Assembly (NCBI GenBank): GCA_902570155.1
Contig: CACFXU010000001.1
Location: forward strand, 169,360-233,359
From: an uncultured Alphaproteobacteria bacterium
Lineage (GTDB): Bacteria; Pseudomonadota; Alphaproteobacteria; HIMB59; GCA-002718135
DNA length: 64,000 nucleotides
Direction: 5' to 3'
In this document: in pieces, positions 5,189 through 39,794 of the stretch
Numbering within the stretch: the stretch's first letter is position 1
How the letters are laid out: every line of letters begins with the position of its first letter
Notes under the pieces: generated by a model
The model's database searches: none
Told to the model about the DNA's origin: nothing
What the model saw: the letters and a program-made list of their open reading frames with translations, nothing else
Translations under genes and position numbers: made by a program

Positions 5189-5257
5189 AGATATATCCTA
5201 TCAAAAAAAAAGACAGATTTGTAATGAAATATAAATTTAAAAAATTATATAAATAGA

Positions 5258-5665
5258 ATGCAAACCCTTAAATTAATTTCGGTACTTATAATATTATGTA
5301 TTGGACATAGTATTCATGCAGCAGAAGTTGATATTTTTAAAGGTATGAAACTATATGCTGAAAATTGTGCAGGGTGTCATATGGGTAATTTAGCAGGTCA
5401 TGAAGAGTGGGATAAATCGTTAGATGAAGATGGCCATAGAAGAGCACCTCCTCTTAATGGCACTGGGCATACTTGGCACCACTCTCCTGCACAATTATTT
5501 CATGTCATTAAATATGGTTTTAAAAAATCAAATCCTGATTATGAAGGTAAAATGCTTGGTAATGATGCGTTATCAGATGACGATGTTTGGTCTATTCTTG
5601 AATTTATCAAAAGTACATGGCCAGAAAAAATACTAAATAAATATAACTCCCATTTTAAAAGCTAA
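5258..5665 (+). CDS. monohaem c-type cytochrome
   Basis: Signal peptide plus a single CxxCH haem-binding motif (CAGCH). Confidence 0.8.
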   Translation: MQTLKLISVLIILCIGHSIHAAEVDIFKGMKLYAENCAGCHMGNLAGHEEWDKSLDEDGHRRAPPLNGTGHTWHHSPAQLFHVIKYGFKKSNPDYEGKMLGNDALSDDDVWSILEFIKSTWPEKILNKYNSHFKS

Positions 5666-5669
5666 GATT

Positions 5670-5688
5670 ATTGAAGCAAATCTTCAAT
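5670..5688 (+). terminator. weak hairpin after the cytochrome c gene (possible attenuator)
   Basis: attgaag-caaat-cttcaat forms a 7-bp stem, followed by tttaatattt. The stem is AT-rich and therefore weak. Confidence 0.2.
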
Positions 5689-5716
5689 TTTAATATTTAA
5701 GATATATATTATTATT

Positions 5717-13054: not shown

Positions 13055-14296
13055 GTGTCCGATAATTTAGAAATTAATAAAAGAGAATATCCAAGCTCTT
13101 TCTCAAAAACTGCTATTGTTATATGCCTTGATGGTAGTCAAAAAGAGTATCTCGAAGAAGCATCAAAATCTAATCTTACACCAAATCTTGATAAATTAAT
13201 TGCAAGTGGTGAAAACCTACTTGTTCACAGCGCTATTCCAAGTTTTACAAATCCAAATAACATTTCGATTGTAACAGGCCAACCAAGTTCTGTTCACGGT
13301 ATATGCGGAAACTTCTTTTATACACCTGAGACGGGCGAAGAAGTAATGATGAATGATCCAAAATATATGCGAGCACCAACTATTTTTGAAAAATTTTACA
13401 ATTCTGGTTCTAAAATTGCTCTTGTTACTGCAAAAGACAAGTTGAGAACACTTTTAGGAAACGGATTAAGTTTTGATGATGAGAGAGCTATTTGTTTTTC
13501 TGCTGAAAAATCTGATCAAGCAACAAAAGATCTCAATGGTATAGATAATGTAAACGATTGGTTGGGGATGCCAGTGCCAGAAGTATATTCTGAAGGACTC
13601 TCTGAATTTGTAATGGCTGCAGGTGTAAAACTTCTTGAAGAGTTTAAACCAAATATTATGTATTTATCGACTACGGATTATATTCAACACAAATATGCAC
13701 CGGGAAATGAAACAGCAAATAAATTTTATGCAATGTTTGATAAATATATTGGTCTTTTAAATAAGGAGAATGTTTCTATAATCATCACAGCAGATCACGG
13801 AATGAAACCAAAATCAAAAGAAGATGGTTCACCTAATGCAATATTTTTACAAGATTATTTAGATAAAAAATTTGATCCAAACATGGCTAAAGTCATCCTA
13901 CCAATTACAGATCCATATGTTGTTCATCATGGTTCACTTGGTTCTTTTGCAACAATTTATTTAGAAGACAAGAGCAAGATAGATTCAGTTGTAAATGCTA
14001 TTAAAGAAATAAAAGATATAGAAGTTGTTTTAACAAAAGATGAAGGATGCTCTACTTACAATTTACCTCCTGATAGAATGGGAGATATTATATGTATGTC
14101 TTCAGAATTTATGACTATTGGTTCATCGGAAGATAAACACAATCTTTCTGGATTAAATGAACCTTTACGTTCTCATGGAGGACTCCATGAAAGAGAAGTG
14201 CCATTCATATCAAATTTAAAATTACAAAACTTAGATACTAGCAAACAATTATATAACTATGATGCATTTTATTATGCAATAAATGGAGCCCTATGA
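13055..14296 (+). CDS. phnA: phosphonoacetate hydrolase (alkaline-phosphatase superfamily)
   Basis: 413 aa. The nucleophile block [15 protein letters not shown] and metal-site TADHGM are typical of NPP/PhnA-type enzymes. It is translationally coupled (ATGA overlap) to the aldehyde dehydrogenase. GTG start. Confidence 0.75.
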
Positions 14297-15735
14297 TGCA
14301 CAAAAAAATGATTAATGAAGCAATGCGTATTGCTGGAGAAAAAGTTACTTCAGATAAAACAATAAATGTTGAGTACCCTTTTACAGGTGAAGTAATCGGA
14401 ACGGTTCCAGCCGGTACTGCAGAGCATGCAAGAAAGGCTTTAGATATTGCTGCAAATTATCAGCCTAAACTTACAAGATATGAGAGACAAAAAATTCTAC
14501 AAACTGCTGCAGAAGTACTTGTTAAAAGAAAAGAAGAAATTTCTGATATTATTACTTTAGAACTTGGTATCTCAAAACAAGATTCTTTATACGAAGTAGG
14601 AAGAGCTTTCGATGTATTTTCATTAACGGCTCAACTTTGTATTCATGATGATGGAGAAATATTTTCTTGTGATTTAACTCCGCATGGAAAAGCCAGAAAA
14701 ATATTTACCATAAGAGAACCTTTAACGGCAATCTCAGCAATCACCCCATTTAATCATCCTTTGAATATGGTAGCGCATAAAATTGCACCTTCAATTGCAA
14801 CTAATAATTGTACTGTATGTAAACAAACAGAATTAACACCTTTAACAGCAATGGTACTCGCCGATGTTTTATATGAAGCAGGTTTACCACCCGAAATGTT
14901 TTCAGTTGTAACTGGATGGCCTCAAGACATTGGATCAGAAATGATCAAAAATCCAAACATTGATCTAATTACTTTTACAGGCAGTGTGGGTGTAGGAAAA
15001 TTAATTGCTGAACAAGCTGGATACAAAAGAACAGTACTAGAGCTTGGCGGTAATGATCCATTAATTGTTTTAAATGACTTAGATGGTGATGATCTTAAAA
15101 AAGCTGTTGAACTAGCTGTTACTGGAGCAACGAAAAATTCTGGTCAACGTTGTACAGCTGTTAAAAGAATATTGGTTCAAGAATCCATTGCAGATCAATT
15201 TGTTGAAATGGCTCTTGAGCGTGCTAAGAAAATTAAATTTGGTGATCCTATGAATATGGAAACAGACTTAGGTACTGTTGTTAATGCTCAAGCTGCAGAA
15301 CTTTTTGATAAAAGAGTTTCTATGGCTGAAGAAGACGGTGCAAAAATTTTATATCACCCTGGAAGAAAGGGTGCTTTGTTACCTCCAATAGTTGTAGATC
15401 ATGTTGATCCTAAAAGTGAATTAGTTTTAGAAGAAACATTTGGTCCAGTTATACCAATCATTCGTGTGCCTAATGACGATGAAGCTGTAATGAAAATATC
15501 TAATTCAACCGCATTCGGATTATCATCTGGTGTATGCACAAATAACTTCATGAGAGCAAAAAAATATATTCAAGGCTTAAATGTTGGCACTGTAAATATT
15601 TGGGAAGTTCCAGGCTATAGAATTGAAATGTCTCCTTTTGGAGGAATTAAAGATTCAGGTCTTGGTTATAAAGAAGGTGTAATTGAAGCAATGAAAAGCT
15701 TTACTAATGTAAAAACCTTCTCACTACCCTGGTAA
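14293..15735 (+). CDS. phnY: aldehyde dehydrogenase, probable phosphonoacetaldehyde dehydrogenase
   Basis: ALDH catalytic blocks ELGGNDP and GQRCTAVKR. It overlaps the phnA stop, and phnW lies in the same locus. Confidence 0.7.
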
Positions 15736-15870
15736 AAATCATTTTTTCTCTAATTTTTCTTATTGCTGTGGAAAAATAAGCTTATTTTTTAGTAATATTT
15801 TCGTAATAAAATTGTAACCCTTTGGGGCTACATGTTAGATTAAATTATTATATTCAATCGGGAGGATTAA

Positions 15871-17124
15871 ATGAAAAAATTAATTACAGGATTGGCAGCC
15901 GTATTAGCTTTCGGTTTTTATGGTTCTGTTAATTCAGCTAAGTCTATTGAAATAGAAGTAGCTTATCCTTATTCAGGATTATTCGATGTTACGTTTCAAG
16001 CTATTATGCCAGAGTTTGAAAAAGCACATCCAGATATTCAAGTTAAATTTAGAGCAACTTATGAAAACTATGAGGATGCAACTGCAACAATCTTCAGAGA
16101 GTCTACTTCAGGTAATTTACCAGATGTAACAATGCAAGGTCTTAACAGACAGGCACCTCTAGTTGACAAAGGTATTGCTAAGTCTTTAGAGCCATTTATC
16201 GCAAAAGAAGCAGCTTTTGAAAAAGATGGTTACCATTCTGCTATGTTAAGTCTTTCAACATTCGGTGGTGAAGTTTATGGATTACCATTTTCTGTATCAA
16301 CACCAGTTGGATATTATAACATGGATTTATTAGCTGAAGCAGGTGTAGATAGTATTCCAACTAACTGGGACGAAGTTATTGCAGCATGTAATAAATTAGA
16401 AGCAGCAGGTAAAGGAACTCTATACTTTGGTTGGAACATTACAGGTAACTGGTTCCACCAAGCATTAATGCATACTCAGAATGTTCCAATGGTTAAAGAT
16501 GGAGCTGTAAATATGGGTGGAGATGCAGGACTTGCAACGTTAGAGCAAATGAAATCAATCATGAGCGGATGTAATATGCCAAACTATTCAATTGCTGATG
16601 GTCAAGCTGCGTTTAACGCAGGTACTATTGGTATGATGTTCTGGTCTACTTCAAGCTTGGGTTCAGTTAATGCTGCAAAGGCAGACTTTGTTTTAAAAAC
16701 TGCACCATTCCCTGGAATGGCTGGAGTAAACAATGGAACACCAGCAAGATTACCAGCAGGTGGAAACGCTGCAATGTTAGTGTCTACATCTGATGATCCA
16801 GCAAGAGTTGATGCTGCATGGACTTTCTTAAAGTTCATTACATCAGGTATCGGTGCTGCATTAGTTGCTGAAACAACTGGATATGTTCCACCAAACAAAG
16901 CAGCGAATGATTTATTAGGTGACTTCTATAGTCAAAACCCTAATAAACTTACTGCAGTTGAACAACTTCCACTTCTAGCTGATTGGTTTGCGTATCCTGG
17001 AGAAAATGGATTAGCTGTTACACAGGTAATCTATGATTTCACGGAAGAAATTGCTACAGGCGACGCTGATGATATGGCAGATCTTCAAGAAGAAATGATG
17101 GAAGAAATAAACGATCTTATGTAA
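15871..17124 (+). CDS. ABC transporter substrate-binding protein, family 1 (UgpB-like)
   Basis: Signal peptide, 417 aa, and strong SD (GGGAGGA). It has a CUT1-type SBP layout (GNLPDV, GLPFS.STPV.YYN). It is the only SBP available to the permease/ATPase operon at 9903-12878. Confidence 0.8.
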   Translation: MKKLITGLAAVLAFGFYGSVNSAKSIEIEVAYPYSGLFDVTFQAIMPEFEKAHPDIQVKFRATYENYEDATATIFRESTSGNLPDVTMQGLNRQAPLVDKGIAKSLEPFIAKEAAFEKDGYHSAMLSLSTFGGEVYGLPFSVSTPVGYYNMDLLAEAGVDSIPTNWDEVIAACNKLEAAGKGTLYFGWNITGNWFHQALMHTQNVPMVKDGAVNMGGDAGLATLEQMKSIMSGCNMPNYSIADGQAAFNAGTIGMMFWSTSSLGSVNAAKADFVLKTAPFPGMAGVNNGTPARLPAGGNAAMLVSTSDDPARVDAAWTFLKFITSGIGAALVAETTGYVPPNKAANDLLGDFYSQNPNKLTAVEQLPLLADWFAYPGENGLAVTQVIYDFTEEIATGDADDMADLQEEMMEEINDLM

Positions 17125-17154
17125 TTTGAGATTATTTATTATTAACTTTTTATT

Positions 17155-17187
17155 ACAGCGGCTTTATAAAAGCCGCTGTTTTATTTT
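17155..17187 (+). terminator. rho-independent terminator after the SBP gene
   Basis: acagcggcttt-ata-aaagccgctgt forms an 11-bp stem, followed by tttatttt. Confidence 0.75.
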
Positions 17188-17211
17188 AAATTTAAATGGG
17201 AGTAAAAATAG

Positions 17212-18291
17212 ATGCCTCTTACAACAACTACAATAGGTGCTTATCCAAAACCTAAACAAACACCCATTCAAGATTGGTTTTTAGGGACAAAATCAGAAGA
17301 AGAGAAAAAAGCATCAAAAGGATTATTATCAAATTGGTCACCTGGCGCATATGAAAAAGCATTAGAGTCTGCAGGTGCGGATGCTGAAAAATTATTTTTA
17401 GCAGCAATTAAAGAAGTTATAACTGATCAAGTAAGTGCGGGTATTGATGTTCCAACAGATGGGGAAGTTAGGCGCGAGAGTTATGTATTATATCAATGTC
17501 GATTTTTAAATGGTGTAAGTTTTAAGGAAGTTACACATAAGTCAGTAAGACAGGGTGCGTTCGAAGCTGACCTTCCAACTATTGTTGCACCAATTTCAAG
17601 TAAAGAAATACGTATGCATTTAGACTGGAAGAGTGCACAACAATTTACAAAAAACCCAGTTAAAATTACGCTACCTGGACCAATGACAATTACAGATTCA
17701 ATTGCCAACAATTACTATGATGACATGAAAAAACTTGGTTTTGATTTAGCATTAGCCCTCAATAAAGAAGTTAAAGCACTTGTAGATGCAGGTTGTCAGT
17801 ATATTCAAATTGATGAACCAGTATTTGCTAGAAAGCCCGATGAAGCTCATTCTTACGGTATGGAAAATTTAGAAAGAATGATGCATGGTATTCCTAAAGA
17901 AGTGCAACGCGTTTGCCATATTTGTTGTGGTTATCCTAACTCATTAGATTCAGAAGGGTATAAAAAGGCTGATCTAGATGCTTATGATAGAATTGCATCA
18001 CTTGTAGATGATTCAACTATTGATGAAGTATCTTTAGAAGATTCACATAGGCATAATGATTTAAATCTTTTAGAAAAATTTACTAAAACAAAAGTAATTT
18101 TTGGATTTATTGATATTGCAAAAAGCAGAATGGAATCTGTTGAAGAAGTAAGAGTTCGTATCAAAGATTCACTTGAACATATTGATGAACACCGTTTAAT
18201 AGCTGCACCAGATTGTGGTTTAGGTTTCTTTACACGAGAACAAGCAATTGAGAAAATGACAATTTTAACTAAAGCGGCAAAATCAATTTAA
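17212..18291 (+). CDS. single-domain MetE-like (cobalamin-independent methionine synthase C-terminal domain family) Zn-dependent alkyltransferase
   Basis: 359 aa, starting TTTIGAYPKP. The IDEP block is present, and the Zn ligand pattern is preserved: H-x-C in CHICCGY, E in SLEDS, C in APDCGLG. Confidence 0.7.
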   Translation: MPLTTTTIGAYPKPKQTPIQDWFLGTKSEEEKKASKGLLSNWSPGAYEKALESAGADAEKLFLAAIKEVITDQVSAGIDVPTDGEVRRESYVLYQCRFLNGVSFKEVTHKSVRQGAFEADLPTIVAPISSKEIRMHLDWKSAQQFTKNPVKITLPGPMTITDSIANNYYDDMKKLGFDLALALNKEVKALVDAGCQYIQIDEPVFARKPDEAHSYGMENLERMMHGIPKEVQRVCHICCGYPNSLDSEGYKKADLDAYDRIASLVDDSTIDEVSLEDSHRHNDLNLLEKFTKTKVIFGFIDIAKSRMESVEEVRVRIKDSLEHIDEHRLIAAPDCGLGFFTREQAIEKMTILTKAAKSI

Positions 18292-18295
18292 GGTA

Positions 18296-19408
18296 ATGTG
18301 GAATTATTTTAACCCTGTTGAAATTATCTTTGGAAAAAATAGATTTACAGAAGTACATGATGCTCTTAAAAATAAGAACTACATCATAATCACTCATCCA
18401 GAAGAAATTTTTAAAAAATATAGCGATGAATTAAAATCTTCTTCAAATCCACCTTTATCCATTATGACGGATGTTCAGCCTAATCCAGATTATAAGGATA
18501 TTTTAGAGCTACAAAATAAATTTTCTTCAATCAATGAATCGGTAGATTATATTTTAGCTATAGGTGGTGGCTCTGTTACAGACACAGCTAAAGCAATTGC
18601 TGCATTTAAAGATAAACAAGAATATCTAACAGATTTCGTTCGTAATAAGCAAAATCCAAGAGTCGAAAATCCAATCAAGATTATTGCAATACCTACAACT
18701 TCAGGAACATCAAGTGAGCTTACGTGTTGGGCCACAATATGGGATAAAGAAAAAAATAATAAATTATCTTTGGCGCATAAATCACTTTATGCAGAAAAAG
18801 CAATTATCGATCCATCTATTATGGTTGATAAGCCTTTAGGTTTGACCATTTCAACTGGTTTAGATGCTCTCTCCCATTCAATGGAAAGTATTTGGAATAT
18901 TAATGCGAACCCAATTTCTGCTTCACATGCAATACAAGCATCAAAATTAGTATTAGAAAATTTACCACTTCTCACTAAAGATTTAAGAAATGTTGAATTA
19001 CGCTCAAACATTGCACTGGCATGCGTTCATGCTGGCTTAGCGTTTTCCAATACAAAAACTGCTATTGCGCACAATCTATCATACCCTGTGACGCTCAATT
19101 ACGGCATTCAACATGGTATTGCTTGCTCATTTACATTACCCATGATTACTAAAAGTATGGTTGGAATTGATAGTGTAGCTGAAGAAAGACTAAAACTAAT
19201 TTTTAACGATAACCTAGAGAATGCTGCAAATCATCTGAGTGAATTTATGCGTTCTTTAGAGGTTCCTCTTAACTTAAATGAAATAAAAGTTCCTGTTCAA
19301 GAATGGAATAATATAGTAGATGATGCGTTTTTAGGGGAACGAGGTAAAAACTTTATTGGCAATAAAGAAGCCTTCATCTCTTCTGCTAAATCAATGGGAC
19401 TTTATTAG
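18296..19408 (+). CDS. group III iron-containing alcohol dehydrogenase (phosphonoacetaldehyde-reductase-like)
   Basis: AIGGGSVTDTAK, IPTTSGTSSE, and His-rich metal motifs (DALSHSMES, AHNLSYP, QHGIA). The N-terminus MWNYFNPVEIIFG resembles PhpC/FomC-type enzymes. The family call is solid; the substrate is inferred. Confidence 0.75.
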   Translation: MWNYFNPVEIIFGKNRFTEVHDALKNKNYIIITHPEEIFKKYSDELKSSSNPPLSIMTDVQPNPDYKDILELQNKFSSINESVDYILAIGGGSVTDTAKAIAAFKDKQEYLTDFVRNKQNPRVENPIKIIAIPTTSGTSSELTCWATIWDKEKNNKLSLAHKSLYAEKAIIDPSIMVDKPLGLTISTGLDALSHSMESIWNINANPISASHAIQASKLVLENLPLLTKDLRNVELRSNIALACVHAGLAFSNTKTAIAHNLSYPVTLNYGIQHGIACSFTLPMITKSMVGIDSVAEERLKLIFNDNLENAANHLSEFMRSLEVPLNLNEIKVPVQEWNNIVDDAFLGERGKNFIGNKEAFISSAKSMGLY

Positions 19409-19410
19409 TA

Positions 19411-20517
19411 ATGAAAAAAAATTTCAGGTTTTATGATAACAGACAAAAATACTTATTATTTGTCACAACAACAAATGAAAAAAATCAAATTGCTGATGCG
19501 ATACGCCCTCACGTAAATAAAATTAAACCTCAAAAACCTGGTATAAAAATATTTGATGCTGGTATGGGTGATGGTTCCTTACTTATGAATGTTATGCGTC
19601 AGTGCCACGAGGCTAAGCCTAACGTACCTTTATTAGTTTGCACAAAAGAAATAAGCATAGAAGATGTAAGATTAGGTTTAGAAAAATTACCCGACAGGTT
19701 TGTTGAACATAAGAATACGGTTTTTGTCATTTCAAATCTACACTACGCTGAAGCTGCAAACCTAAAATCAAAAAATGAAGTTAAACAGAAAAAAATTAAT
19801 TGGAATATTATTAAATTAAAAGGAGATACCTCTCTTGAATTTGCCCAACAATTAAGAAAACAAAATGAATTTTTAGAAAAAAAATGGAATATAGAAATTA
19901 ATAAAAAGTCAGGTAACCATACTTATAAAGAGCCTTCAGTCATGGTTATCTACCGCGAAGATCAAGAATTTAATGTAAATGAATTAATACCTACCAAAAA
20001 AAAATCAGATAATAAATTTGATCTTATAATTGCTTCACAGCCTTATCGTTCAAGAATCACAGCAGAAAAGAAATCAAAATATGTCATCGAACCAATGATT
20101 AGAGCGTTAAAATCAAAAGGGAAATTATTAACTATTCATGCTTCAGGAAAAGATCCTGCTAATGAAATAATTCGTAAAATTTGGCCAAAAGAGGACCCAT
20201 TTCCTTCTCTTGGAAATAGTATCATTTCTTATCTTAAGAAAAATTTAGATAAAGATTTATTAAGAAGATTATCTTTTGGAGAAAAAAGAATTATTAAATG
20301 TAAATTGAGAGCTCTACCAACAGAAATCAGCGGAGGTATAGCGACATCATTAGTTTTTTCTGCTTGGAATGCCTCCATATATGTCAATCAAATGGATGAC
20401 GACAAAGTAATGAAAGTAGAAAAAACTAAAAACTATGAAAAAATTGTTCAAAACATTGTTGCTAAAAATAAAGGTCTTTATTTTAACAATGAAATATTTG
20501 TAATCGAAAAAAAATAA
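19411..20517 (+). CDS. hypothetical protein with class-I methyltransferase-like Rossmann motifs
   Basis: IKIFDAGMGDGSLL looks like SAM motif I, followed by an acidic residue after strand 2 and a DLIIASQPY block. I cannot recognise a family. It starts 2 nt after the ADH stop. Confidence 0.35.
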   Translation: MKKNFRFYDNRQKYLLFVTTTNEKNQIADAIRPHVNKIKPQKPGIKIFDAGMGDGSLLMNVMRQCHEAKPNVPLLVCTKEISIEDVRLGLEKLPDRFVEHKNTVFVISNLHYAEAANLKSKNEVKQKKINWNIIKLKGDTSLEFAQQLRKQNEFLEKKWNIEINKKSGNHTYKEPSVMVIYREDQEFNVNELIPTKKKSDNKFDLIIASQPYRSRITAEKKSKYVIEPMIRALKSKGKLLTIHASGKDPANEIIRKIWPKEDPFPSLGNSIISYLKKNLDKDLLRRLSFGEKRIIKCKLRALPTEISGGIATSLVFSAWNASIYVNQMDDDKVMKVEKTKNYEKIVQNIVAKNKGLYFNNEIFVIEKK

Positions 20518-20521
20518 TTTT

Positions 20522-21310
20522 TTATTTAAACCAATTAACTTCTGTTTTTAAAAAATCCTCTGTATGAATAATTAAGGCGTCAGATCGAATTATTGCAACA
20601 TTATAATTTGTATCTGTATTAGCCGTTCCTAAACGATATTCATTTGAAAAGTTAGGTATTAGAGGAGACCAAGTACTTCTTGGGGAAGAAAAAGTAATAC
20701 CACAATAAGAGCCAGAACTTGTAATATGTTGATGACCAAAAAAAATATGTTTTATTATCTTATTATTTTTCGTTAAAATTTTTTGAAACTCTTTTTTTTG
20801 TTGTAATCCTATTCCATCACTTTCCTCTTTTACTAATGCCAGTGGATTATGATGCATAAAGATATACGTATCTGTATTAGTCTTACTTAAAATATTATTT
20901 AACCATTCTTGCCTCTCTTCACAGTAATGTCCTTGGTGAGTATTAATTAGATTAGTATCTATAAAAATTAAACGTTTATTATCTATATCCTTAAAGTATT
21001 GAATAAATCCATTTGGATCGGTTTCAATATTAGGAAAGTTTATTTTAAACTCATCTCTGTTATCATGATTACCTATAATTAACTGAGGACTCAAATTCTT
21101 TGGCAGGTCTGCTTCATCAATTATTTTTAAAAATAACTGATAAGAATCTTTATCACCTAAGTCTGTAATATCACCAGTGATGGCAAATAAATCTGCATCA
21201 CCATGATTATTTTTTATATGAGTTAATGCTTTTTTAAATTTACTGACAGGATCTATGCCATGAATCTTATCTATATAAATATGAGGGTCTGAAAGGTGAA
21301 TAATTTTCAT
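20522..21310 (-). CDS. calcineurin-like metallophosphoesterase, CpdA/GpdQ-type phosphodiesterase
   Basis: The full motif set is present: HLSDPH, TGDITDLGD, IGNHDNR, FMHHNP, FGHQHI. Confidence 0.8.
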   Translation of the reverse strand: MKIIHLSDPHIYIDKIHGIDPVSKFKKALTHIKNNHGDADLFAITGDITDLGDKDSYQLFLKIIDEADLPKNLSPQLIIGNHDNRDEFKINFPNIETDPNGFIQYFKDIDNKRLIFIDTNLINTHQGHYCEERQEWLNNILSKTNTDTYIFMHHNPLALVKEESDGIGLQQKKEFQKILTKNNKIIKHIFFGHQHITSSGSYCGITFSSPRSTWSPLIPNFSNEYRLGTANTDTNYNVAIIRSDALIIHTEDFLKTEVNWFK

Positions 21311-21330: not shown

Positions 21331-21963
21331 TTAGATCGCAGTTTTAAAATAAATATACTTATTAAATTCCTCTTTTAAGTCGATGCTAACTCTTGCATGT
21401 ACTTTACCTTGTTTTCCTTGAAACGATTGTTTTTCTGTAACTGGAAACACCCCTTCATGCCAAATATTTGGATGAATATACAAACCTTTTGATCCGTCAC
21501 AATAAAATGCTTTAAAATGTTCTGGTTCAATGTCGTCTGTCGGTAAGGCTAAAGGGCAAATAAATGGTTTATTTTCTTCAGGAAAGAAAAGCTGACCTCC
21601 ATCAGGATGATAATTTGCATGCCATAAAAAAATTTTTGTTGGATCTGAATATTTATCTTTTTGTAATTCTTGATCAGGATTATTGGCATAACCCAGTATA
21701 TATTTTCCATCTACTTCATAATCGCTCTTATGTTGAACAGCATTATTTTGCCCATAAAGCACGTCACCTTGCCACCAGGTATCAAAAGAACCTTCGGTAG
21801 TTCCACCTTCATTACCAGTTCCCTCTTCTATGTCGCGCCATCCTTGTTTTGGCCAAGTAACAATTTCAATATCGCTATTTTCAAAACTATCGATTAAATA
21901 CCCATATCCTGTAAGATTTTCATTTGTTGCTTTAACTAATGGTATTTCAATTTCTTTTGTCAT
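21331..21963 (-). CDS. ureidoglycolate-lyase (AllA)-like cupin-fold protein, function unknown
   Basis: The C-terminal half (YHPDGGQLFFP...FKAFYCDGSKGLYIHPNIWHEGVFP) parallels my recollection of E. coli AllA (ERHPLGTQAFIP...[24 protein letters not shown]). It has a longer N-terminal half than AllA. Confidence 0.5.
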   Translation of the reverse strand: MTKEIEIPLVKATNENLTGYGYLIDSFENSDIEIVTWPKQGWRDIEEGTGNEGGTTEGSFDTWWQGDVLYGQNNAVQHKSDYEVDGKYILGYANNPDQELQKDKYSDPTKIFLWHANYHPDGGQLFFPEENKPFICPLALPTDDIEPEHFKAFYCDGSKGLYIHPNIWHEGVFPVTEKQSFQGKQGKVHARVSIDLKEEFNKYIYFKTAI

Positions 21964-21970
21964 TGTTTTG

Positions 21971-23068
21971 TTAGTTTAATGTTAATCCCAATTCAGTAAC
22001 AACTTCTTTTACTGCCTCTATAGTATCTATCATGTCTTGTTCATCTAAATTACCAATACACCCAATTCTAAAAGTTTCTGCCACTGTTAGTTTTCCAGGA
22101 TAAATTAAAAAATCTTTTTCACTAAGAGCATTATAAAATTTCTCAAAATTAAATTTAGGATCATTAGGTTGTTTAAACGTAATAATAATTGGTGCCTGCA
22201 AATTATCAGGAAGTAATTGCTCAAATCCTAACTCTTTCATTCCATTACAAATAATTTCACAATTTTTTTTATATCTTTTGCCCCGTCCCTCTACACCGCC
22301 TTGTTCTTTATGTTCTTCAATAGCTTGGTTGAATGCAGCCAATACGTGTGTTGGAGGTGTAAATCGCCATTGTTTATTTTTTTCCATTGCTTGCCATTGA
22401 TCATATAAGTCTAGACTTAGTGAGTGACTATTGCCTTTTGCATTTTGAATAACTTCATTTTTAACAAGAATGAAACCAACACCTGGCACACCTTCTAAGC
22501 ATTTGTTTGATGAAGCGGCTACAGCATCAAAAGTAATTGTTTTAGAACTTAAGGGTAATGCACCAAAGGCACTCATTGCATCGATGAATAACGATAAATT
22601 TTTCCCTTCAACCAATTTTGCAATGTCTTCAATAGGATTTAAAATACCCGATGTTGTTTCACAATATACAGCAAAGACGTGTGTTAAGTTGTTGCTATCA
22701 ATTAACTCTTCAATTTTATTGATGTCATGTACTTCATGTTCAGCAACTTCATATTCAATAAAATCTCTCCCTAAATATGTGCACATTTTTTTCATTCTTT
22801 GTCCGTAAGCACCATTGATCAGAATCAGAATTTTAGAATCTTTTTGAGTAAGAGAGCTCACCATCGACTCTACAGCAAAAGTCCCACTTCCCTGCATTGG
22901 AACACATTGATATTTATCTTCACCATCTATTAATTTAACAAGGGAATCTCTAATTGATGCATTGAGATCAATAAATTTTGTATCTCTCGAACCCCAATCA
23001 TGAAGCATTGCCTCTTTTGTTGACATCGATGTCGTGAGAGGCCCAGGGGTTAATAATTTTTTATCCAT
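21971..23068 (-). CDS. phnW: 2-aminoethylphosphonate--pyruvate transaminase
   Basis: 365 aa class-V aminotransferase with N-terminal LLTPGPLTTS and PLP-lysine block SSNKCLEGVPGVGF. Confidence 0.8.
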   Translation of the reverse strand: MDKKLLTPGPLTTSMSTKEAMLHDWGSRDTKFIDLNASIRDSLVKLIDGEDKYQCVPMQGSGTFAVESMVSSLTQKDSKILILINGAYGQRMKKMCTYLGRDFIEYEVAEHEVHDINKIEELIDSNNLTHVFAVYCETTSGILNPIEDIAKLVEGKNLSLFIDAMSAFGALPLSSKTITFDAVAASSNKCLEGVPGVGFILVKNEVIQNAKGNSHSLSLDLYDQWQAMEKNKQWRFTPPTHVLAAFNQAIEEHKEQGGVEGRGKRYKKNCEIICNGMKELGFEQLLPDNLQAPIIITFKQPNDPKFNFEKFYNALSEKDFLIYPGKLTVAETFRIGCIGNLDEQDMIDTIEAVKEVVTELGLTLN

Positions 23069-23156
23069 TAAATATTTACTTAATAAATATTATTATAAAT
23101 TTGATCAATCTTATTAAAGTTGGAATTGAATTTATTTTCTAATAAGTTAATTATAA

Positions 23157-23732
23157 ATGAGAATGGAAGAAAATATCGTAGATTATCTCTTAGATCTTTT
23201 GAAAACAAAAGGTGCTGATATTCAATATGGTAATGAGGATGTCACACAGCTTGAGCACGCACTCCAATGCGCTGAACTTGCTGAAAAAAATAAATTACCA
23301 GGACCAACAATTGCTGCAGCATTACTGCATGATGTTGGTCACCTTATCTATGAGGACGGCGATCCCATTCATGAAGGCAAAGATGGTCATCATGAAAATT
23401 TAGGTGCTGATTTTTTAAAAAAATATTTTGGTGAGGATGTTATTTTACCAATTAGAGCACATGTTGACTCAAAAAGATATTTATCAAGTGTTGAAGAGGG
23501 TTATTATGATAGCCTATCAGAAGCATCGAAACTTTCATTAAAAGTTCAAGGCGGTCCTTTCACAAAAGAAGAAGCAGATGCATTTATAAGTAAACCTTTT
23601 ATGGATGAAGCAATAGAGCTTAGGAGATTTGATGATTTAGCAAAAGTTCTAGATAAAAAAACTCCCGATGTTGAACATTTCCGTCCCTATTTAGAAGAAG
23701 CAAGAGAGTCTTTTTTAGCTAAACAAGCGTAA
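23157..23732 (+). CDS. HD-domain protein of the PhnZ/TmpB type (mixed-valent di-iron C-P cleaving oxygenase family)
   Basis: 191 aa. The pattern QLEHALQCAELA...AALLHDVGH...HHENLGADFL...RAHVDSKRYL...LSEASKLSLKVQGGP follows the PhnZ layout as I recall it. Confidence 0.65.
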   Translation: MRMEENIVDYLLDLLKTKGADIQYGNEDVTQLEHALQCAELAEKNKLPGPTIAAALLHDVGHLIYEDGDPIHEGKDGHHENLGADFLKKYFGEDVILPIRAHVDSKRYLSSVEEGYYDSLSEASKLSLKVQGGPFTKEEADAFISKPFMDEAIELRRFDDLAKVLDKKTPDVEHFRPYLEEARESFLAKQA

Positions 23733-24257
23733 ATGCAATTTAGCAATTATGATTTTATTGACTCTAAGTCATTTGCAGGAAAAATTATATTAACTTCTTT
23801 CCCAGGTCTTAACTCTAATGGTTTATTTGAAGAAACAATTTTAGCAAACGAATTAGAAATATTTAAAAATAATAATTGTAGTTCTATTACTTCTTTTGTT
23901 GAAGATAGCGAATTTGAAAAATTGTGTGATAAAACTTTGTTTGTCAAAAATATTTATGAACATAAATTACATTGGTACCATTTACCCATTTATGACATGG
24001 GAGCACCAGATAAAGATTTTAAATATAAATGGGAAACAACAAAAGTTTTATTAAAGAACGAATTGATAGATGGTAAAAATATAGTCTTACATTGTCGTGG
24101 AGGAAAAGGAAGAGCTGGCACTATAGCTGCTATTTTACTTGTTGAATTTAATTATGAAAAACAAGAAGCTATTAATCTTGTACGATCAAGAAGAAAAGGA
24201 GCTATTGAGTCAAAAATCCAAGAAGATTTTATTTTTTCTTATCGAGCAGTTAATTAA
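23733..24257 (+). CDS. Cys-based (dual-specificity/PTP-fold) phosphatase
   Basis: HCX5R(S/T) P-loop (LHCRGGKGRAGT) with an upstream Asp loop (IYDMGAPD). Its ATG directly abuts the stop of the HD gene (TAAATG). Confidence 0.75.
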   Translation: MQFSNYDFIDSKSFAGKIILTSFPGLNSNGLFEETILANELEIFKNNNCSSITSFVEDSEFEKLCDKTLFVKNIYEHKLHWYHLPIYDMGAPDKDFKYKWETTKVLLKNELIDGKNIVLHCRGGKGRAGTIAAILLVEFNYEKQEAINLVRSRRKGAIESKIQEDFIFSYRAVN

Positions 24258-25306
24258 AAAGAGACCGTTAAATTAAAAATATTTTCTAGAATAAATAAAA
24301 CAATTAAAGAAATTAAAGCTGCAATTATAGGTAGCGTCATCCAACCCAAAGAAATTCTACCCGCAATTGACCATTGAACCTCTTTTCCTCCTTTTAAAAG
24401 ACCAATTCCAATTACGCCGCCAACAACAGCTTGGGAACTTGATACTGGTACCAAAGGTATAGAGGGAAGATTTATAGATTGTAAAAAAGCACTTATACCC
24501 TGAGATGCAAATAAAAATAAAACAATAGAATGCGATATAACAACAATAAATGCTGCCACTGGTGTCATTTTTAAAAGATCATTACCCACGGTAAACATAA
24601 CTCTTTTCGAATAAGTAAAAACACCAACAGCTATTGCTAAACCACCCAGCAGAAATAATTGTTCTTTTGAGGAAAAGACAAATAAATTTCCAATAGTAAC
24701 ATCAGTAAACGGTGATATAGGTACGAAGACACCCATTACGTTAGCAATATTGTTTGCGCCTAAACTATAAGCACCAAAAGCACCCGCTAAAAGTAAAGCT
24801 GTTCTTGTATAGGCATCAAGTCTGAGAATATGTAACTTTCTATTGAGTATAACTCTTTTTGTAAAAGTAAATAAACCCATTGCAATAACTCCTGCAATGA
24901 TAGGACAGAGTATCCATGTTCCTAAAATAGTAATTAAAACTTGAAGGTTAGTTGAAGATCCCGTGTATAAATTCCAACCAACAATTGCTCCAACGATCGC
25001 TTGCGTTGTTGAAACAGGCAAGCCAACTTTGGTCATTAAATAAACGGATATGCCTGCAGCCACACATGCTGCAAAGGCACCAGGTAATGCATTAATAGCA
25101 CCTAACTTACCTAAAGTTTCTGTTGTACCTGCTCCGCTAATTATTGCACCTAGAATAACAAAGAGACTACAGATTATTGCTGCACTTGTGAAACTAACCA
25201 TTCGTGTTCCAACTGCAGTTCCAAAAACATTTGCTGCATCATTGGCGCCAAGTGACCAACCTAAAAAAAGACCACCAAATAAAAAAATTAGAATTGTAAT
25301 TTCCAT
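24254..25306 (-). CDS. inorganic phosphate transporter, PiT family
   Basis: 350 aa polytopic protein with the duplicated PiT signature GANDAANVFGTAVG / GANNIANVMG. Confidence 0.9.
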   Translation of the reverse strand: MEITILIFLFGGLFLGWSLGANDAANVFGTAVGTRMVSFTSAAIICSLFVILGAIISGAGTTETLGKLGAINALPGAFAACVAAGISVYLMTKVGLPVSTTQAIVGAIVGWNLYTGSSTNLQVLITILGTWILCPIIAGVIAMGLFTFTKRVILNRKLHILRLDAYTRTALLLAGAFGAYSLGANNIANVMGVFVPISPFTDVTIGNLFVFSSKEQLFLLGGLAIAVGVFTYSKRVMFTVGNDLLKMTPVAAFIVVISHSIVLFLFASQGISAFLQSINLPSIPLVPVSSSQAVVGGVIGIGLLKGGKEVQWSIAGRISLGWMTLPIIAALISLIVLFILENIFNLTVSF

Positions 25307-25312
25307 TGAAAA

Positions 25313-25975
25313 TTAAACGGAGCGTTTAATAGCGTAAATTTGAACCTCGTCAGCTATGTCTTCTGCTTGATCACAAATACGATCAATCTTCTCTACAAAA
25401 TATCGAAGATGCATTTTTTGATCTAGAGGTAATTCAGAATCAAAAATTCTTCTTGCAAGTGCACTAAATTTTATATCAGATTCTTTTTCGTAAAATGTAA
25501 CTTTATGTGCATTATCTCTAACAGATTTAATATCTCTAAAAAATGATCTTACAGTTAAACATAATGATTCAACACAATTTACAACAGTCTCTGTTAACTC
25601 AATTAAATCTTGGTGAAACTCTTTTGGAAAATTAGGTTTTTGAATAGAGAAGTGATAACAATTCCCTTGGTACATTCCAATTAATTCGTCGATGTGTTCT
25701 AGAAGTCGTAACACATCACTTCTTGCATCTGGGATTAGTGTTTCTTCATAAAGAGTATGCTCAACATCTTTCGTAATTTTGTCGGCCTTACTTTCCATTT
25801 CTTTTACTTTTTCAACCATTTCCTCAAATTTACCATTGGCGGAATGATTGAGATAAGTTGGAACTATCGATTTAAATACTAAGCCCACTTCAGAGACAAT
25901 ATCAACAAACTCATCAATTTCTCTTTCAAGCTTTTTGGTATCACCAAATAATGATGCACTTTTTAATCCAAACAT
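25313..25975 (-). CDS. DUF47 / PhoU-like Pit accessory protein
   Basis: 220 aa helical protein sitting directly upstream of the PiT gene, which is the classic DUF47-PiT pair. Confidence 0.8.
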   Translation of the reverse strand: MFGLKSASLFGDTKKLEREIDEFVDIVSEVGLVFKSIVPTYLNHSANGKFEEMVEKVKEMESKADKITKDVEHTLYEETLIPDARSDVLRLLEHIDELIGMYQGNCYHFSIQKPNFPKEFHQDLIELTETVVNCVESLCLTVRSFFRDIKSVRDNAHKVTFYEKESDIKFSALARRIFDSELPLDQKMHLRYFVEKIDRICDQAEDIADEVQIYAIKRSV

Positions 25976-26013: not shown

Positions 26014-26035
26014 TGTTAAATTTTTGTTACAATTT
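26014..26035. promoter_or_regulatory. Pho-box-like 11-bp-phased direct repeat (TGTTAAA-TTTT-TGTTACA-ATTT)
   Basis: The two 7-mers match at 6/7 positions and are spaced exactly 11 bp apart. The site lies in the divergent spacer between DUF47-PiT and the small-membrane-protein/arsC pair. Confidence 0.3.
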
Positions 26036-26098
26036 GATTAATATCTTTATCTTTAAGTAAAGTGTAATATTCGCAATCTATAGAATTTAGGAGAAGAT

Positions 26099-26326
26099 AT
26101 GACAGATTTATCAATTAATAGAATTAAGTGGTTTAGCACCGCGTTAATTTTATCGGGAATATTATTAACCAATTTAAATGCCTATCCAATTAACATAATT
26201 ATTCACGGCACAGGAGCTGTTGGTTGGTCAATTGTTGGCTATATGACAAAAGATAGAGCTCTTCTTACAAACTTTGGTTTACAACTTCCACTATTTATTT
26301 TTGGATATATTTATTTGCTTTCATGA
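26099..26326 (+). CDS. small hydrophobic protein (2-3 TM), unknown function
   Basis: 75 aa, SD GGAGAAG upstream, and its stop overlaps the arsC start (ATGA). Confidence 0.5.
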   Translation: MTDLSINRIKWFSTALILSGILLTNLNAYPINIIIHGTGAVGWSIVGYMTKDRALLTNFGLQLPLFIFGYIYLLS

Positions 26327-26742
26327 AAAATAAAAATATTCTTTTTATGTGTGTTGCTAATTCAGCAAGAAGTCAAATGGCTGAAGGAATTGCAAAAAAA
26401 TTATATCCTAATTGTATAATTCAAAGTGCAGGATCAGTGCCCAAAGAAGTTAATCCCAATGCTATCGAGGTTATGGGTGAAATCGATATTGATATATCAA
26501 AACATTATTCAAAAGATTTTGAAAGTTTAGACAAAAAATTTAGAGATGAATTAAATACCGTTTTTACGCTTTGTAAAGAAGAGGTATGTCCAGTTTTAAA
26601 TTCCAAAGCTCAGATATTTTCAATACCATTTGATGATCCAGCATCAGATCATTTTAGTTCAAACCAATTAGATAAATTTAGAGAAGTAAGAGACTCAATT
26701 TTTATTAAATTGAAAGAACTAAAAAATTTATTTGAAAACTAA
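26323..26742 (+). CDS. arsC: arsenate reductase, LMW-PTP (thioredoxin-coupled) type
   Basis: P-loop CVANSARS (CX5R-S) at the N-terminus and a downstream Cys pair in TLCKEEVCP, as in the pI258/Bacillus ArsC family. Confidence 0.75.
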   Translation: MKNKNILFMCVANSARSQMAEGIAKKLYPNCIIQSAGSVPKEVNPNAIEVMGEIDIDISKHYSKDFESLDKKFRDELNTVFTLCKEEVCPVLNSKAQIFSIPFDDPASDHFSSNQLDKFREVRDSIFIKLKELKNLFEN

Positions 26743-31118: not shown

Positions 31119-32147
31119 CTAAACTTTTACCATGAATTCTAAAAATTCATTCACACATTTGTCCCAAGTTAATTTAAGAGAAAAATTTCTACAATCAACT
31201 CTTTTTACTTTAAGTGCCTTCTTAACTGATTGTAACAAGTCATTATCTAAAGTGTTAATCTTTTCATCTGTTAATACATCTATGGGCCCGGTTACTGGAT
31301 ATGCAGCAATTGGTGTTCCACTAGCCAATGCTTCAAGTATTACATTTCCTAAAGTGTCTGTTTTAGAAGGAAAGACAAATACATCTGCGTTTGCATAATA
31401 TTTCGCTAGTTCATCTCCAGTTTTTACACCGACAAAATTTATTTCAGGATATTTATTAATATATTTTTGTAATTCGGGACCATCACCCACAACAGTTTTA
31501 TTATAATTTCCTTTAAGTTTTAAAAATTCTTCAATATTTTTTTCAATTGCTACTCTACCAACATAAGTCAGTTGTCTATCTTTACTGTTTGTGTCTCTTT
31601 TATTTGGATTAAATAATTCTGTATCAACACCTCTATTCCAAACTACTAAATTTTTAAAATTATATTTTTTTAACTCATTTAGCATTGAAACTGATGGAAC
31701 AAGAACTCTTTCTGAATCACTATGTAGTCTTCTTAATATGGAGTATGTAAATCTCTTTGGGATAAAAGCTCTTTGCTTAATGTAGTCAGGAAAACGGGTG
31801 TGAAAGGAAGAAGTGTATTGTAGTTTATTTTTAAGACAGTACTTACGACCAGCAAAACCTACCGGACCTTCAGTCATTATATGAACAATATCTGGATTAA
31901 ATTCTTTAAAAAATTTTTCAGTAACTTTTTTAGTATTGTAAGAAATTTTTATTTCTTTGTACCAAGGATAACTAAAATTATTAAACATCTCAGGATGTAA
32001 TATTTTAATTTCAAAACCTTTTTTTTCTAGAATAGGTATAACGCTTTGAAATGTCGTAACTACGCCATTTACCTGAGGAACCCACGCATCACTAATTAAC
32101 GCGATTTTTTTAGGCTGCATCCTCTTTAATTTTTCGTCTTTCTTCAA
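31119..32147 (-). CDS. agt: GT4-family glycosyltransferase, probable glycolipid synthase of the PlcP-Agt lipid-remodelling pair
   Basis: It has a GT-B fold and the E-x7-E region (ETLGNVILEALASGTPIAAY). It lies immediately downstream of and overlapping plcP. The start could be the second Met (32120). Confidence 0.7.
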   Translation of the reverse strand: MKKDEKLKRMQPKKIALISDAWVPQVNGVVTTFQSVIPILEKKGFEIKILHPEMFNNFSYPWYKEIKISYNTKKVTEKFFKEFNPDIVHIMTEGPVGFAGRKYCLKNKLQYTSSFHTRFPDYIKQRAFIPKRFTYSILRRLHSDSERVLVPSVSMLNELKKYNFKNLVVWNRGVDTELFNPNKRDTNSKDRQLTYVGRVAIEKNIEEFLKLKGNYNKTVVGDGPELQKYINKYPEINFVGVKTGDELAKYYANADVFVFPSKTDTLGNVILEALASGTPIAAYPVTGPIDVLTDEKINTLDNDLLQSVKKALKVKRVDCRNFSLKLTWDKCVNEFLEFMVKV

Positions 32148-32922
32148 AAGAAATTAATTTTAATTTTTCTCTTTCTTCGGGCCAATTAAGAATAGATAAA
32201 TTGCCAATTTCATCTTCAACGAGTGCTGTGCAACTTTCAATCCAGTCACCATCATTACAATAGAGAACACCATTTAATTCCTTTATTTCAGGTCTATGTA
32301 TATGCCCGCACACAACAACATCGGCATTTTCTCTTCTTGCCCTATCAGATACAGCAAACTCAAAATTACTAATAAAGTTTGTTGCATGCTTTGTTTTCTT
32401 TTTTAAATATTGAGACAGTGACCAATAAGATAAACCCATCTTTCGTCGAATAAAATTAAATACATTATTTAACTTTAGTAAATATTCATAAAGTGCTGAT
32501 CCCACTTTGGCTAACCATCTTGCATTAATGATCACAGCATCAAATTCATCTCCGTGTGTAATCAGTACTTTCCTTCCATCAGCTAATTGATGTGTATCTT
32601 CATTTTTGATTGAAATTTCTCCAAAGGAAAAATTTGTAAAATCTTTTAATACTTCATCATGATTTCCTGGGATAAGCACTACCCTAGTTCCATTTTTCGC
32701 TTTCTTTAAAACTTTTTGAACCACGTCGTTATGTTCTTGTGGCCAATACATTTTCTTACGCATGCGCCATCCATCAACAATGTCGCCTACTAAAAATAAA
32801 TATTCCGAATCTGTTTCTTCTAAGAATTCTAAAAGCATTTTGCTTTTACAACCACTGGTTCCTAGGTGGGTATCCGAAATCCAAATTGTGCGGTAAAATT
32901 TTTTATTACTTTCAAATTTCAT
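32110..32922 (-). CDS. plcP: LpxH-like metallophosphoesterase, probable phospholipase C PlcP
   Basis: Motifs ISDTHLG, VGDIVDGW, IPGNHDE, ITHGDEFD, VCGHIHRP. Pairing with a GT4 gene matches the P-stress lipid renovation operon described in SAR11 and other marine heterotrophs. Confidence 0.75.
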   Translation of the reverse strand: MKFESNKKFYRTIWISDTHLGTSGCKSKMLLEFLEETDSEYLFLVGDIVDGWRMRKKMYWPQEHNDVVQKVLKKAKNGTRVVLIPGNHDEVLKDFTNFSFGEISIKNEDTHQLADGRKVLITHGDEFDAVIINARWLAKVGSALYEYLLKLNNVFNFIRRKMGLSYWSLSQYLKKKTKHATNFISNFEFAVSDRARRENADVVVCGHIHRPEIKELNGVLYCNDGDWIESCTALVEDEIGNLSILNWPEEREKLKLISFEERRKIKEDAA

Positions 32923-39753: not shown

Positions 39754-39794
39754 ATTGTAATAGAATTGTAACAAAAATTTAATAGTAGAGATTC

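Follow-up and report, generated by a model that had tools for sequence, protein, structure and literature searches.

A Cys-based phosphatase gene beside a PhnZ-type oxygenase gene in a SAR11 phosphorus island: association with the AepXVW importer in marine Alphaproteobacteria

We analyzed two adjoining genes in a 64,000-nucleotide (nt) stretch of DNA from an uncultured alphaproteobacterium (contig CACFXU010000001.1, positions 169,360 to 233,359; hereafter the window). One encodes an HD-domain protein of the PhnZ family and the other a Cys-based phosphatase, and both lie within a large SAR11 phosphate-stress and phosphonate island. All of the evidence comes from sequence and gene context. An earlier note on this DNA had described the two open reading frames (ORFs), the zero spacing between them (TAAATG), and the phosphatase loop HCRGGKGRAGT, and each was found as described:

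23157 to 23732, plus strand (23163 to 23732 from the conserved start): HD gene, an ORF of 191 amino acids (aa); predicted PhnZ-family HD-domain mixed-valent di-iron oxygenase, with matches to TIGR03276, TmpB (6npa), and PhnZ (4mlm).
23733 to 24257, plus strand: phosphatase gene, 174 aa; Cys-based phosphatase of a small VHZ/SsoPTP/PRL/KAP-like fold, with the P-loop at residues 120-127 and D88.

The junction between them reads gcgTAAATGcaa, with the phosphatase ATG directly after the HD stop codon. The length of 191 aa reported earlier for the HD protein applies to the ORF (23157-23732) but not to its likely start. The ATG at 23157 is not kept in the related SAR11 loci L062, L063, and L067, whereas the ATG at 23163 is conserved and gives 189 aa, as in most homologues. 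The HD protein is therefore probably 189 aa long.

At least 85 fetched SAR11 loci share with the window an HD gene followed directly by the phosphatase gene, although the loci were gathered with the two proteins as seeds and many of those from SAR11 are almost the same, so counts here and below are not unbiased frequencies. The TAAATG junction was retained in all seven lineages checked, at phosphatase identities of 86-93%. The ratio of non-synonymous to synonymous substitution rates (dN/dS) indicates strong purifying selection on both genes (HD, 0.03-0.05; phosphatase, 0.04-0.15). Given this recurrence across loci, the kept junction, and the low dN/dS, the arrangement is not a chance juxtaposition. 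The nearest genomic matches were single-cell genomes at 99% phosphatase identity, and slightly more distant ones were assigned to Pelagibacteraceae and Pelagibacterales.

The HD protein matched Pfam HD (32.2 bits) and, over the full model length, NCBIfam TIGR03276 Phn-HD (202.3 bits). Among solved structures, whole-length matches were best for TmpB (6npa, 2.6e-33) and also strong for PhnZ (4mlm, 1.7e-29). Its residues Y24, E27, H34, H58, D59, H62, H79, H102, and D159 align to Y24, E27, H34, H58, D59, H62, H80, H104, and D161 of PhnZ, with ligand numbering taken from a review of the HD superfamily (PMC8177086). These include a complete di-iron set H...HD...H...H...D (H34, H58-D59, H79, H102, and D159) and an aligned YxxE substrate-gating loop (Y24-G-N-E27; Y24/E27 in PhnZ and Y30/E33 in TmpB), which together define an oxygenase subclass of the superfamily (PMC8177086). 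Because all di-iron ligands and the YxxE loop are present, the HD protein is, by its predicted active site, a PhnZ/TmpB-type di-iron oxygenase rather than an ordinary phosphohydrolase. The PhnZ-like motif pattern proposed earlier is thus confirmed by alignment.

Comparison with characterized enzymes places the protein close to, but apart from, each of them. The PhnZ of HF130_AEPn_1 (PDB 4MLM/4MLN), an (R)-1-hydroxy-2-aminoethylphosphonate oxygenase, is of the same length class, aligns over residues 8-182, and shares the six di-iron ligands, the YxxE loop, and H62. However, the canonical gene adjoins that of the hydroxylase PhnY*, whereas the HD gene of the window adjoins PhnW, and its product falls in a separate PhnZ subclade. 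TmpB (PDB 6NPA) and Gimesia maris PhnZ1 (GmPhnZ1) likewise share fold and ligands with the HD protein, but it is a member of neither equivalog, and the window holds no TmpA- or GmPhnY*-like partner.

The phosphatase P-loop contains H120, C121, and R127 of an HCX5R motif, and the general acid D88 lies in PIYDMGAP, which aligns to PIPDGGVP of SsoPTP. Pfam PTP-SAK scored 49 bits (cut-off 27), SsoPTP was matched at 2.5e-09, and the AF2 model (pLDDT 92.5) gave a Foldseek probability of 1.00 to PRL, KAP, and SsoPTP. The top folds were PRL-1/2/3, KAP, SsoPTP, Tk-PTP, and VHZ, with TM scores of 0.65-0.84; for the leading matches PRL-1, KAP, and SsoPTP the scores were 0.7-0.8. Relatives as distant as 31% identity all retain D88, H120, C121, R127, and Q163, and the protein therefore looks like an active, catalytically complete enzyme, in line with its earlier description as an HCX5R phosphatase. 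It has the fold, the HCX5R loop, the IPD-type general acid, and the GAIExxxQE motif in common with SsoPTP, Tk-PTP, VHZ/DUSP23, PRL-1/2/3, and KAP/CDKN3. By contrast, those proteins come from archaea or eukaryotes and serve as protein phosphatases or regulators, while the window phosphatase belongs to a bacterial clade tied to an ABC importer and is 20-30% identical to them.

Two finer readings of the P-loop were tried and set aside. A PTEN-like reading (HCRGGKGRAG against HCKAGKGRTG) was dropped because K125 and R122 occur in the SAR11 clade alone, with GGLGR in relatives. A PRL-like slow phosphatase, suggested by the Ala after the catalytic Arg, was also rejected, as this Ala is not kept outside SAR11 Ia.

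The conserved partner of the phosphatase clade is the AepXVW (PhnS2T2U2) importer and not the HD enzyme. The SAR11 phosphatase clade is narrow (19 matches below 1e-30 in a profile search of 1.84 billion representatives) and sits within a large family of ~180-aa proteins. Its next relatives, at 31-41% identity, lie on contigs of 44-47% GC in the order EamA, AepX, AepV, AepW, phosphatase (L097-L100 and L104). In these loci, the phosphatase start overlaps the end of the permease gene or lies at most 18 nt from it, and PhnS2, PhnT2, and PhnU2 all scored above cut-offs. A metagenome scan with a non-SAR11 phosphatase as seed returned at least 80 loci. Among the matches listed, 37 loci were informative (marine GC of 0.36-0.48 and 600 nt or more of sequence upstream), and in 36 of these the gene immediately before the phosphatase was AepW, mostly with a 13-nt overlap; the single exception was L114. 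Protein identity across the 36 loci ranged from 98% down to 33%, and none of them had HD, PhnW, PhnA, or PhnY within 7 kb of the phosphatase.

The same importer is found within SAR11. Five loci (L082, L083, and L088-L090) have the order HD (+), AepX (-), AepV (+), AepW (+), phosphatase (+), PiT (-), and L091 carries the same set between its HD gene and a fragmented phosphatase gene. In divergent SAR11 lineages, the importer binding protein is PhnS2, above cut-off. In the window, a tblastn survey found no AepX or AepW, and the gene upstream of the phosphatase is the HD gene. Because the conserved partner elsewhere is AepXVW, with no HD gene nearby outside SAR11, the TAAATG junction is a derived, lineage-specific juxtaposition, in which the phosphatase gene abuts the HD gene because the importer genes are missing from that spot. 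Ancestrally, the phosphatase is the last gene of the importer operon, translationally coupled to the permease gene. The earlier note had proposed that the pair forms a phosphorus-scavenging module of its own, possibly with a phosphatase resembling PTP-like phytases. Phosphorus scavenging stands for both genes, but the HD gene is replaced by AepXVW as the conserved partner. The phytase comparison fell away: Pfam at E <= 0.01 matched only PTP-SAK, Tc-R-P, DSPc, Y_phosphatase, CDKN3, and Y_phosphatase3, with no PTP-like phytase family, and such phytases are presumably about twice the size of this 174-aa protein.

The association of aepXVW with a Cys-phosphatase gene is robust in marine Alphaproteobacteria, including SAR11, and we found no description of it in the open-access literature. 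The importer itself is that of Murphy et al. 2021 (PMC8316502): in the relatives the phosphatase is its fourth gene, and the binding protein, ATPase, and fused permease score above NCBIfam cut-offs. The published operons differ in that they are co-located with phnWX or phnWAY, and a term search of that paper found no phosphatase. The phosphatase-linked operons, by contrast, usually have no C-P-cleaving gene within 7 kb.

More distant, high-GC relatives of the phosphatase occur without AepW, beside ADP-ribosylglycohydrolases, in mobile contexts, or in a Pseudomonas ars operon. An overlapping or adjacent ADP-ribosylglycohydrolase gene was seen in L102 (7072-8582), L103 (80-1590), and the metagenome loci L155, L159, L163, L165, and L174, and this pairing explains the misleading name "ADP-ribosyl-[dinitrogen reductase] hydrolase" on some SAR11 homologues. 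The plasmid collection contained only outgroup dual-specificity phosphatases (DSPs), fused or adjacent to ADP-ribosylglycohydrolase or in ars operons. About 10 of its 22 matches were annotated as CDKN3-family, mostly on Pseudomonas plasmids, and among them the surroundings of L106 were inspected.

The window (30.4% GC) consists almost entirely of phosphorus-stress genes. Those around the pair are as follows, with NCBIfam cut-offs in brackets:

9040 to 9888, minus strand: phn_DUF6/EamA membrane protein, from the family scan.
9903 to 12878, minus strand: UgpE/A/C-like ABC transporter genes, from the family scan.
13055 to 14296, plus strand: PhnA, phosphonoacetate hydrolase; TIGR02335 469.5 bits (407.55).
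14293 to 15735, plus strand: PhnY, phosphonoacetaldehyde dehydrogenase; TIGR03250 798.7 bits (635.65).
15871 to 17124, plus strand: UgpB-like binding protein; variable cassette.
17212 to 18291, plus strand: MetE-like protein (cobalamin-independent methionine-synthase family); variable cassette.
18296 to 19408, plus strand: PhpC/PsrA-type Fe-alcohol dehydrogenase; TIGR03405 364.6 bits; variable cassette.
19411 to 20517, plus strand: 368-aa protein; sub-threshold Methyltransf_31 match only.
20522 to 21310, minus strand: SpdA-like metallophosphoesterase; variable cassette.
21331 to 21963, minus strand: AllA-like cupin (ureidoglycolate-lyase family), 210 aa; PF04115 39.6 bits, C-terminal part only.
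21971 to 23068, minus strand: PhnW, 2-aminoethylphosphonate-pyruvate transaminase; NF010006 510.8 bits (296); 88-bp spacer to the divergent HD gene.
24254 to 25306, minus strand: PiT-family phosphate transporter; PF01384 206.4 bits; convergent on the phosphatase gene.
25313 to 25975, minus strand: PhoU_div/DUF47 partner of PiT; PF01865 80.2 bits.

Downstream of the pair lie PiT, PhoU_div, ArsC, Ppk, SixA, Ppx, GlpF, Agt, PlcP, PhoR, PstSCAB, PhoU, and PhoB. Flexible phosphate and phosphonate islands of this kind have already been described for SAR11 and HIMB59 (PMC7318151, PMC10734472).

These neighbors bear on the hydroxylase question. The earlier note had presented the HD gene as an unexplained orphan without its Fe/2-oxoglutarate hydroxylase. 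The first part of that picture needs revision, as the note missed PhnW (21971-23068), which adjoins the HD gene divergently, and PhnA and PhnY (13055-15735), which lie 8 kb upstream in the same island. The HD gene is therefore not a stray; with PhnW, PhnY, and PhnA it forms a phnWAY + phnZ cluster, in which PhnWAY is a complete hydrolytic route. The absence of the hydroxylase from the window was reproduced: no TauD, PhyH, or BBOX-type protein appeared among the 60 of 67 window ORFs of at least 110 aa that were scanned (50 with Pfam and 10 with NCBIfam; the other seven are four ORFs of 121-168 aa and three antisense ORFs). The window scans also detected no PbfA-like PLP enzyme, since PhnW was the only aminotransferase seen.

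This configuration is known, and the puzzle of the orphan oxygenase is already explained in the literature. Across 19,425 complete genomes, Zangelmi et al. 2021 found phnZ without phnY* in 24 of 75 phnWAY clusters (32%) and in 15 of 1186 phnWX clusters, and never together with PbfA (PMC8154272, counts from its Table 1). They argue that phnZ handles (R)-1-hydroxy-2-aminoethylphosphonate, a natural compound poorly processed by PhnW and PhnX (PMC8154272). Direct use of exogenous 1-hydroxy-aminoethylphosphonate, one of three alternatives offered earlier, is thus the standard explanation for such clusters (PMC8154272). The window has the same combination of PhnW, PhnY, PhnA, and a PhnZ homologue without PhnY* or PbfA; the survey differs in covering complete genomes of cultured bacteria, and neither the Cys-phosphatase nor the AllA-like gene is mentioned there. 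A marine excess of phnZ over phnY* has been on record since 2010-2012, with phnZ in 9.4% and phnY* in 1.6% of genomes in the GOS metagenomes (PMC3266647), and in one survey 45% of the phnZ sequences from the sea came from Pelagibacterales (PMC9381506).

A second alternative of the earlier note, the AllA-like cupin as a non-canonical partner of the HD enzyme, did not hold up. In every locus that has it, the cupin gene is the immediate downstream neighbor of PhnW, including in the non-SAR11 locus L094 (7178-7819, 41% GC), which has AllA-like, PhnW, and HD genes with no phosphatase adjoining; the cupin also occurs in L095 (628-1266). Conversely, the HD gene has no AllA-like cupin nearby in L068, L071, L082, and L085-L088. 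The match to AllA covers only ~60 C-terminal residues. A role as hydroxylase was ruled out by the co-occurrence with PhnW and because AllA represents a lyase family rather than an oxygenase. The cupin is instead a candidate for a new accessory enzyme in the PhnW branch of aminophosphonate catabolism. An open-access full-text search for a link between an AllA-like cupin and PhnW or phosphonates gave nothing relevant.

On balance, we lean towards reading the HD and phosphatase genes as two accessory genes of the SAR11 phosphate-stress and phosphonate island rather than as a dedicated two-enzyme pathway. With O2, the HD enzyme would turn an imported (R)-1-hydroxy-2-aminoalkylphosphonate into glycine and phosphate by oxidizing its C1-H; the most likely substrate is (R)-1-hydroxy-2-aminoethylphosphonate. 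By analogy with PhnZ, the substrate would bind the di-iron site and displace Y24, O2 would be activated at Fe2, the C1-H would be abstracted, and the C-P bond would be cleaved. No hydroxylase would be needed because the hydroxylated compound would come from the environment, and the enzyme would work alongside PhnW-PhnY-PhnA, which would take plain 2-aminoethylphosphonate (2-AEP) but would process the hydroxy compound only poorly. The phosphatase, in analogy with UgpQ, would release phosphate in the cytoplasm from phosphate-ester cargo entering with aminophosphonates. In ugpBAEC-ugpQ, an organophosphate ABC importer operon ends in a cytoplasmic phosphoesterase for the cargo; the likeness is one of operon logic only, as the enzyme folds are unrelated (GDPD vs. 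PTP). We infer the substrates of both enzymes.

Several points weigh against this reading. The phnZ family divides into subclades with different substrates, and specificity for 2-AEP is established for the original PhnY*Z clade alone (PMC8316502). In the same paper, the AepX of Stappia is highly specific for 2-AEP (Kd 23 nM), and its ligand table lists four phosphonates and no phosphate ester (PMC8316502). The TIGR03276 score of the HD protein (202.3) is below the cut-off of 214.6. However, SAR11 and non-SAR11 relatives score 202.7-207.2, and the shortfall is a near miss of a hypothetical-equivalog threshold and no sign of a different fold. The scores against the equivalog models of TmpB (NF049941, 157.5) and GmPhnZ1 (NF052439, 153.5) are also well under their cut-offs of 300. 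The negative result for a hydroxylase covers the window and not the remaining genome. Moreover, the phosphatase is conserved in the window although AepXVW is absent there, and its closest folds (PRL, KAP, VHZ, and SsoPTP) are protein phosphatases or regulators. Finally, a Cys phosphatase cannot cleave a phosphonate.

That last point, together with the coupling to an importer, makes an ester cargo the simplest explanation for the phosphatase. Ester cargoes are plausible because the importer binding protein has homologues in P5PA (6wce), a solved PLP-binding protein, and in an AfuA-type protein (4r72), the latter presumably a sugar-phosphate binder. They also fit because phosphatase-linked operons usually have no C-P enzyme nearby. 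This role for the phosphatase, with phosphoethanolamine (2-aminoethyl phosphate, the ester analogue of 2-AEP) as the obvious candidate, is a tentative guess that could well be wrong. Somewhat more doubtful is a stronger version, in which the phosphatase would be a dedicated fourth component of AepXVW in SAR11 and other abundant marine Alphaproteobacteria, forming a self-sufficient phosphorus-scavenging module that would also import an aminoalkyl phosphate ester such as phosphoethanolamine and cleave it in the cytoplasm, or would gate the importer by intracellular phosphate.

We consider it unlikely that the phosphatase is not catabolic at all but regulates the importer or phosphate signaling in the manner of PRLs. 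It might bind or dephosphorylate a transporter or Pho-regulon component (e.g., the TOBE domain of AepV), or its P-loop might sense phosphate or phosphonate, the model being PRLs acting on CBS domains of CNNM Mg transporters. The best structural matches (PRL-1/2/3 complexed with CNNM Bateman domains, and KAP) point in this direction, as do the translational coupling to the permease gene and the position of the SAR11 gene beside PiT and PhoU_div. In SAR11 Ia, the residue after the catalytic Arg is Ala, and PRLs have Ala there as well. However, this Ala is not conserved, most relatives having Ser or Thr, and the full catalytic set is invariant, including the Gln that positions the hydrolytic water, which fits a turnover enzyme. 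No regulatory partner was identified.

It is improbable that the HD enzyme has a hydroxylase partner elsewhere in the genome or in a non-canonical neighbor (the AllA-like cupin or the 368-aa protein), with 2-AEP or another phosphonate as the real starting substrate. Canonical PhnZ, TmpB, and GmPhnZ1 all work with a paired 2-oxoglutarate hydroxylase (PMC8177086, PMC10574752), and the negative scan leaves room for one beyond the window. Two other loci are in line with such pairing. L094 carries a TauD-family gene at a distance of 4 kb from its HD gene, although it cannot be called PhnY* because it has no NCBIfam assignment. In L104 (6507-7996, minus strand, 44.5% GC), a divergent 208-aa HD protein (only 37 bits to TIGR03276), a 283-aa PhyH-family protein, and a LysR regulator adjoin the aepXVW-phosphatase operon; this set may be a further variant of the hydroxylase and HD-oxygenase pathway. 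Yet the TauD/PhyH family is absent from the 60 window ORFs scanned, the AllA-like gene co-varies with PhnW and is missing near HD in several lineages, with only 60 residues matching the AllA lyase, and ocean phnZ is several-fold commoner than phnY* (PMC3266647).

More improbable still is a two-step pathway, in which the HD enzyme would cleave the C-P bond of a phosphonate monoester (e.g., a lipid- or glycan-derived hydroxy-aminoethylphosphonate ester) and the phosphatase would then hydrolyze the resulting phosphate monoester. Known PhnZ enzymes take free phosphonic acids (summarized in PMC10574752). The pairing within SAR11 is nonetheless tight: TAAATG coupling occurs in at least 86 SAR11 loci including the window, the pair stays intact where PiT is lost (L050, L052, L053, and L059-L061) and where PhnW and the AllA-like gene are absent (L068 and L071), and in SAR11-clade loci with enough upstream sequence an HD gene lies within ~5 kb of every phosphatase gene. 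Outside SAR11, however, 36 loci among the matches listed combine the phosphatase with AepXVW and lack an HD gene within 7 kb, L094 has an HD gene without the phosphatase, and importer genes can separate the two even within SAR11.

Action of the phosphatase on arsenate, as a reductase or an arsenate-adduct hydrolase kept because phosphate transporters admit arsenate, is very improbable: HCX5R loops do support arsenate reduction in other folds (Acr2 and LMW-PTP-type ArsC), a thioredoxin-type ArsC gene (26323-26742) lies 2 kb downstream in the window and within ~270 nt of the phosphatase gene in PiT-less loci, and L106 (Pseudomonas sp. CIP-10 plasmid NZ_CP087161.1) has a CDKN3-annotated DSP (6010-6513) in the order arsR-arsB-arsC-arsH-DSP-arsO-arsN1, but that DSP is an outgroup of only ~27% identity, and the conserved partner of the clade is AepXVW; the gene tables of L097-L100 and L104 show no ars gene, a check that did not extend to the flanks of the 36 metagenome loci.

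The HD half of the pair adds little, as hydroxylase-less PhnZ beside phnW, phnY, and phnA is documented and a role on environmental hydroxy-aminoethylphosphonate has been proposed. Still, the SAR11 PhnZ subclade is by some counts the most abundant marine phosphonate-cleaving gene, and estimates of marine phnZ abundance differ ~20-fold, partly from differing treatment of subclades (PMC10574752). The phosphatase half bears on AepXVW-type "phosphonate" transporters, which are among the ocean's most transcribed organophosphorus transporters; aepX transcripts are reportedly ~100-fold above those of phnD in the global ocean (PMC8316502). Should the phosphatase act on cargo, this importer family would have a broader substrate range than thought, and its transcripts in ocean surveys would change in meaning. 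A regulatory role would instead make the phosphatase a bacterial counterpart of PRL-type transporter control.

Further features of the island concern its variability and boundaries. The stop codons of the phosphatase (+) and PiT (-) genes overlap in the palindrome TTAA (24254-24257), and there is no room for a terminator between these genes. The cassette at 15871-21310 varies in presence or absence among SAR11 loci; within it, the UgpB-like, MetE-like, and Fe-alcohol dehydrogenase genes (15871-19408) come and go. The 368-aa protein (19411-20517), which had no NCBIfam or PDB match, is conserved and occurs in most island variants. The PhpC/PsrA-type dehydrogenase fits a recently described route from HEP to phosphonoacetaldehyde (PMC13576164).

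In one SAR11 lineage (L091-L093), a kinase gene of the choline-kinase/APH fold (e.g., 5173-6048 on the minus strand of L092) stands divergent from the HD gene in PhnW's place, and the kinase scored 153 bits to the guanitoxin kinase GntI model, below the cut-off of that model. Further downstream in the window, a glycosyltransferase gene and a metallophosphoesterase gene overlap at 31119-32922 (-), an arrangement which we take to be the SAR11 Agt and PlcP genes of phosphate-stress lipid remodeling.

Some regulatory sequence could also be recognized. A TTGTAAY-N4-TTGTAAY repeat lies upstream of phoB, PhoU_div/PiT, and the UgpB-like binding-protein gene, as three tandem TTGTAAY-like heptamers with 11-bp spacing at 39755-39783 (+), 26015-26043 (-), and 15790-15818 (+). 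The sequence TTGTAACAAAAATTTAA is common to the phoB and PhoU_div/PiT sites. We tentatively regard these heptamers as SAR11 Pho boxes; the window-wide count of the TTGTAAY motif (89) was not above that of shuffles (77 +/- 8). A Pho box upstream of the HD gene was considered and rejected, as the PhnW/HD spacer offers only a match with three mismatches (23126-23143) and the motif count does not exceed shuffles. A promoter and terminator scan of 22900-24500, in AT-rich DNA, gave 9 sites where 7.8 were expected and predicted no terminator. Apart from the spacers of L076, L094, and L095, where it was not seen, a conserved CT(A/T)ATAAGTTAA element stands 10-20 nt upstream of the HD start in the window (23130-23150) and in the L062-L078 spacers, in SAR11 lineages down to 73% protein identity.

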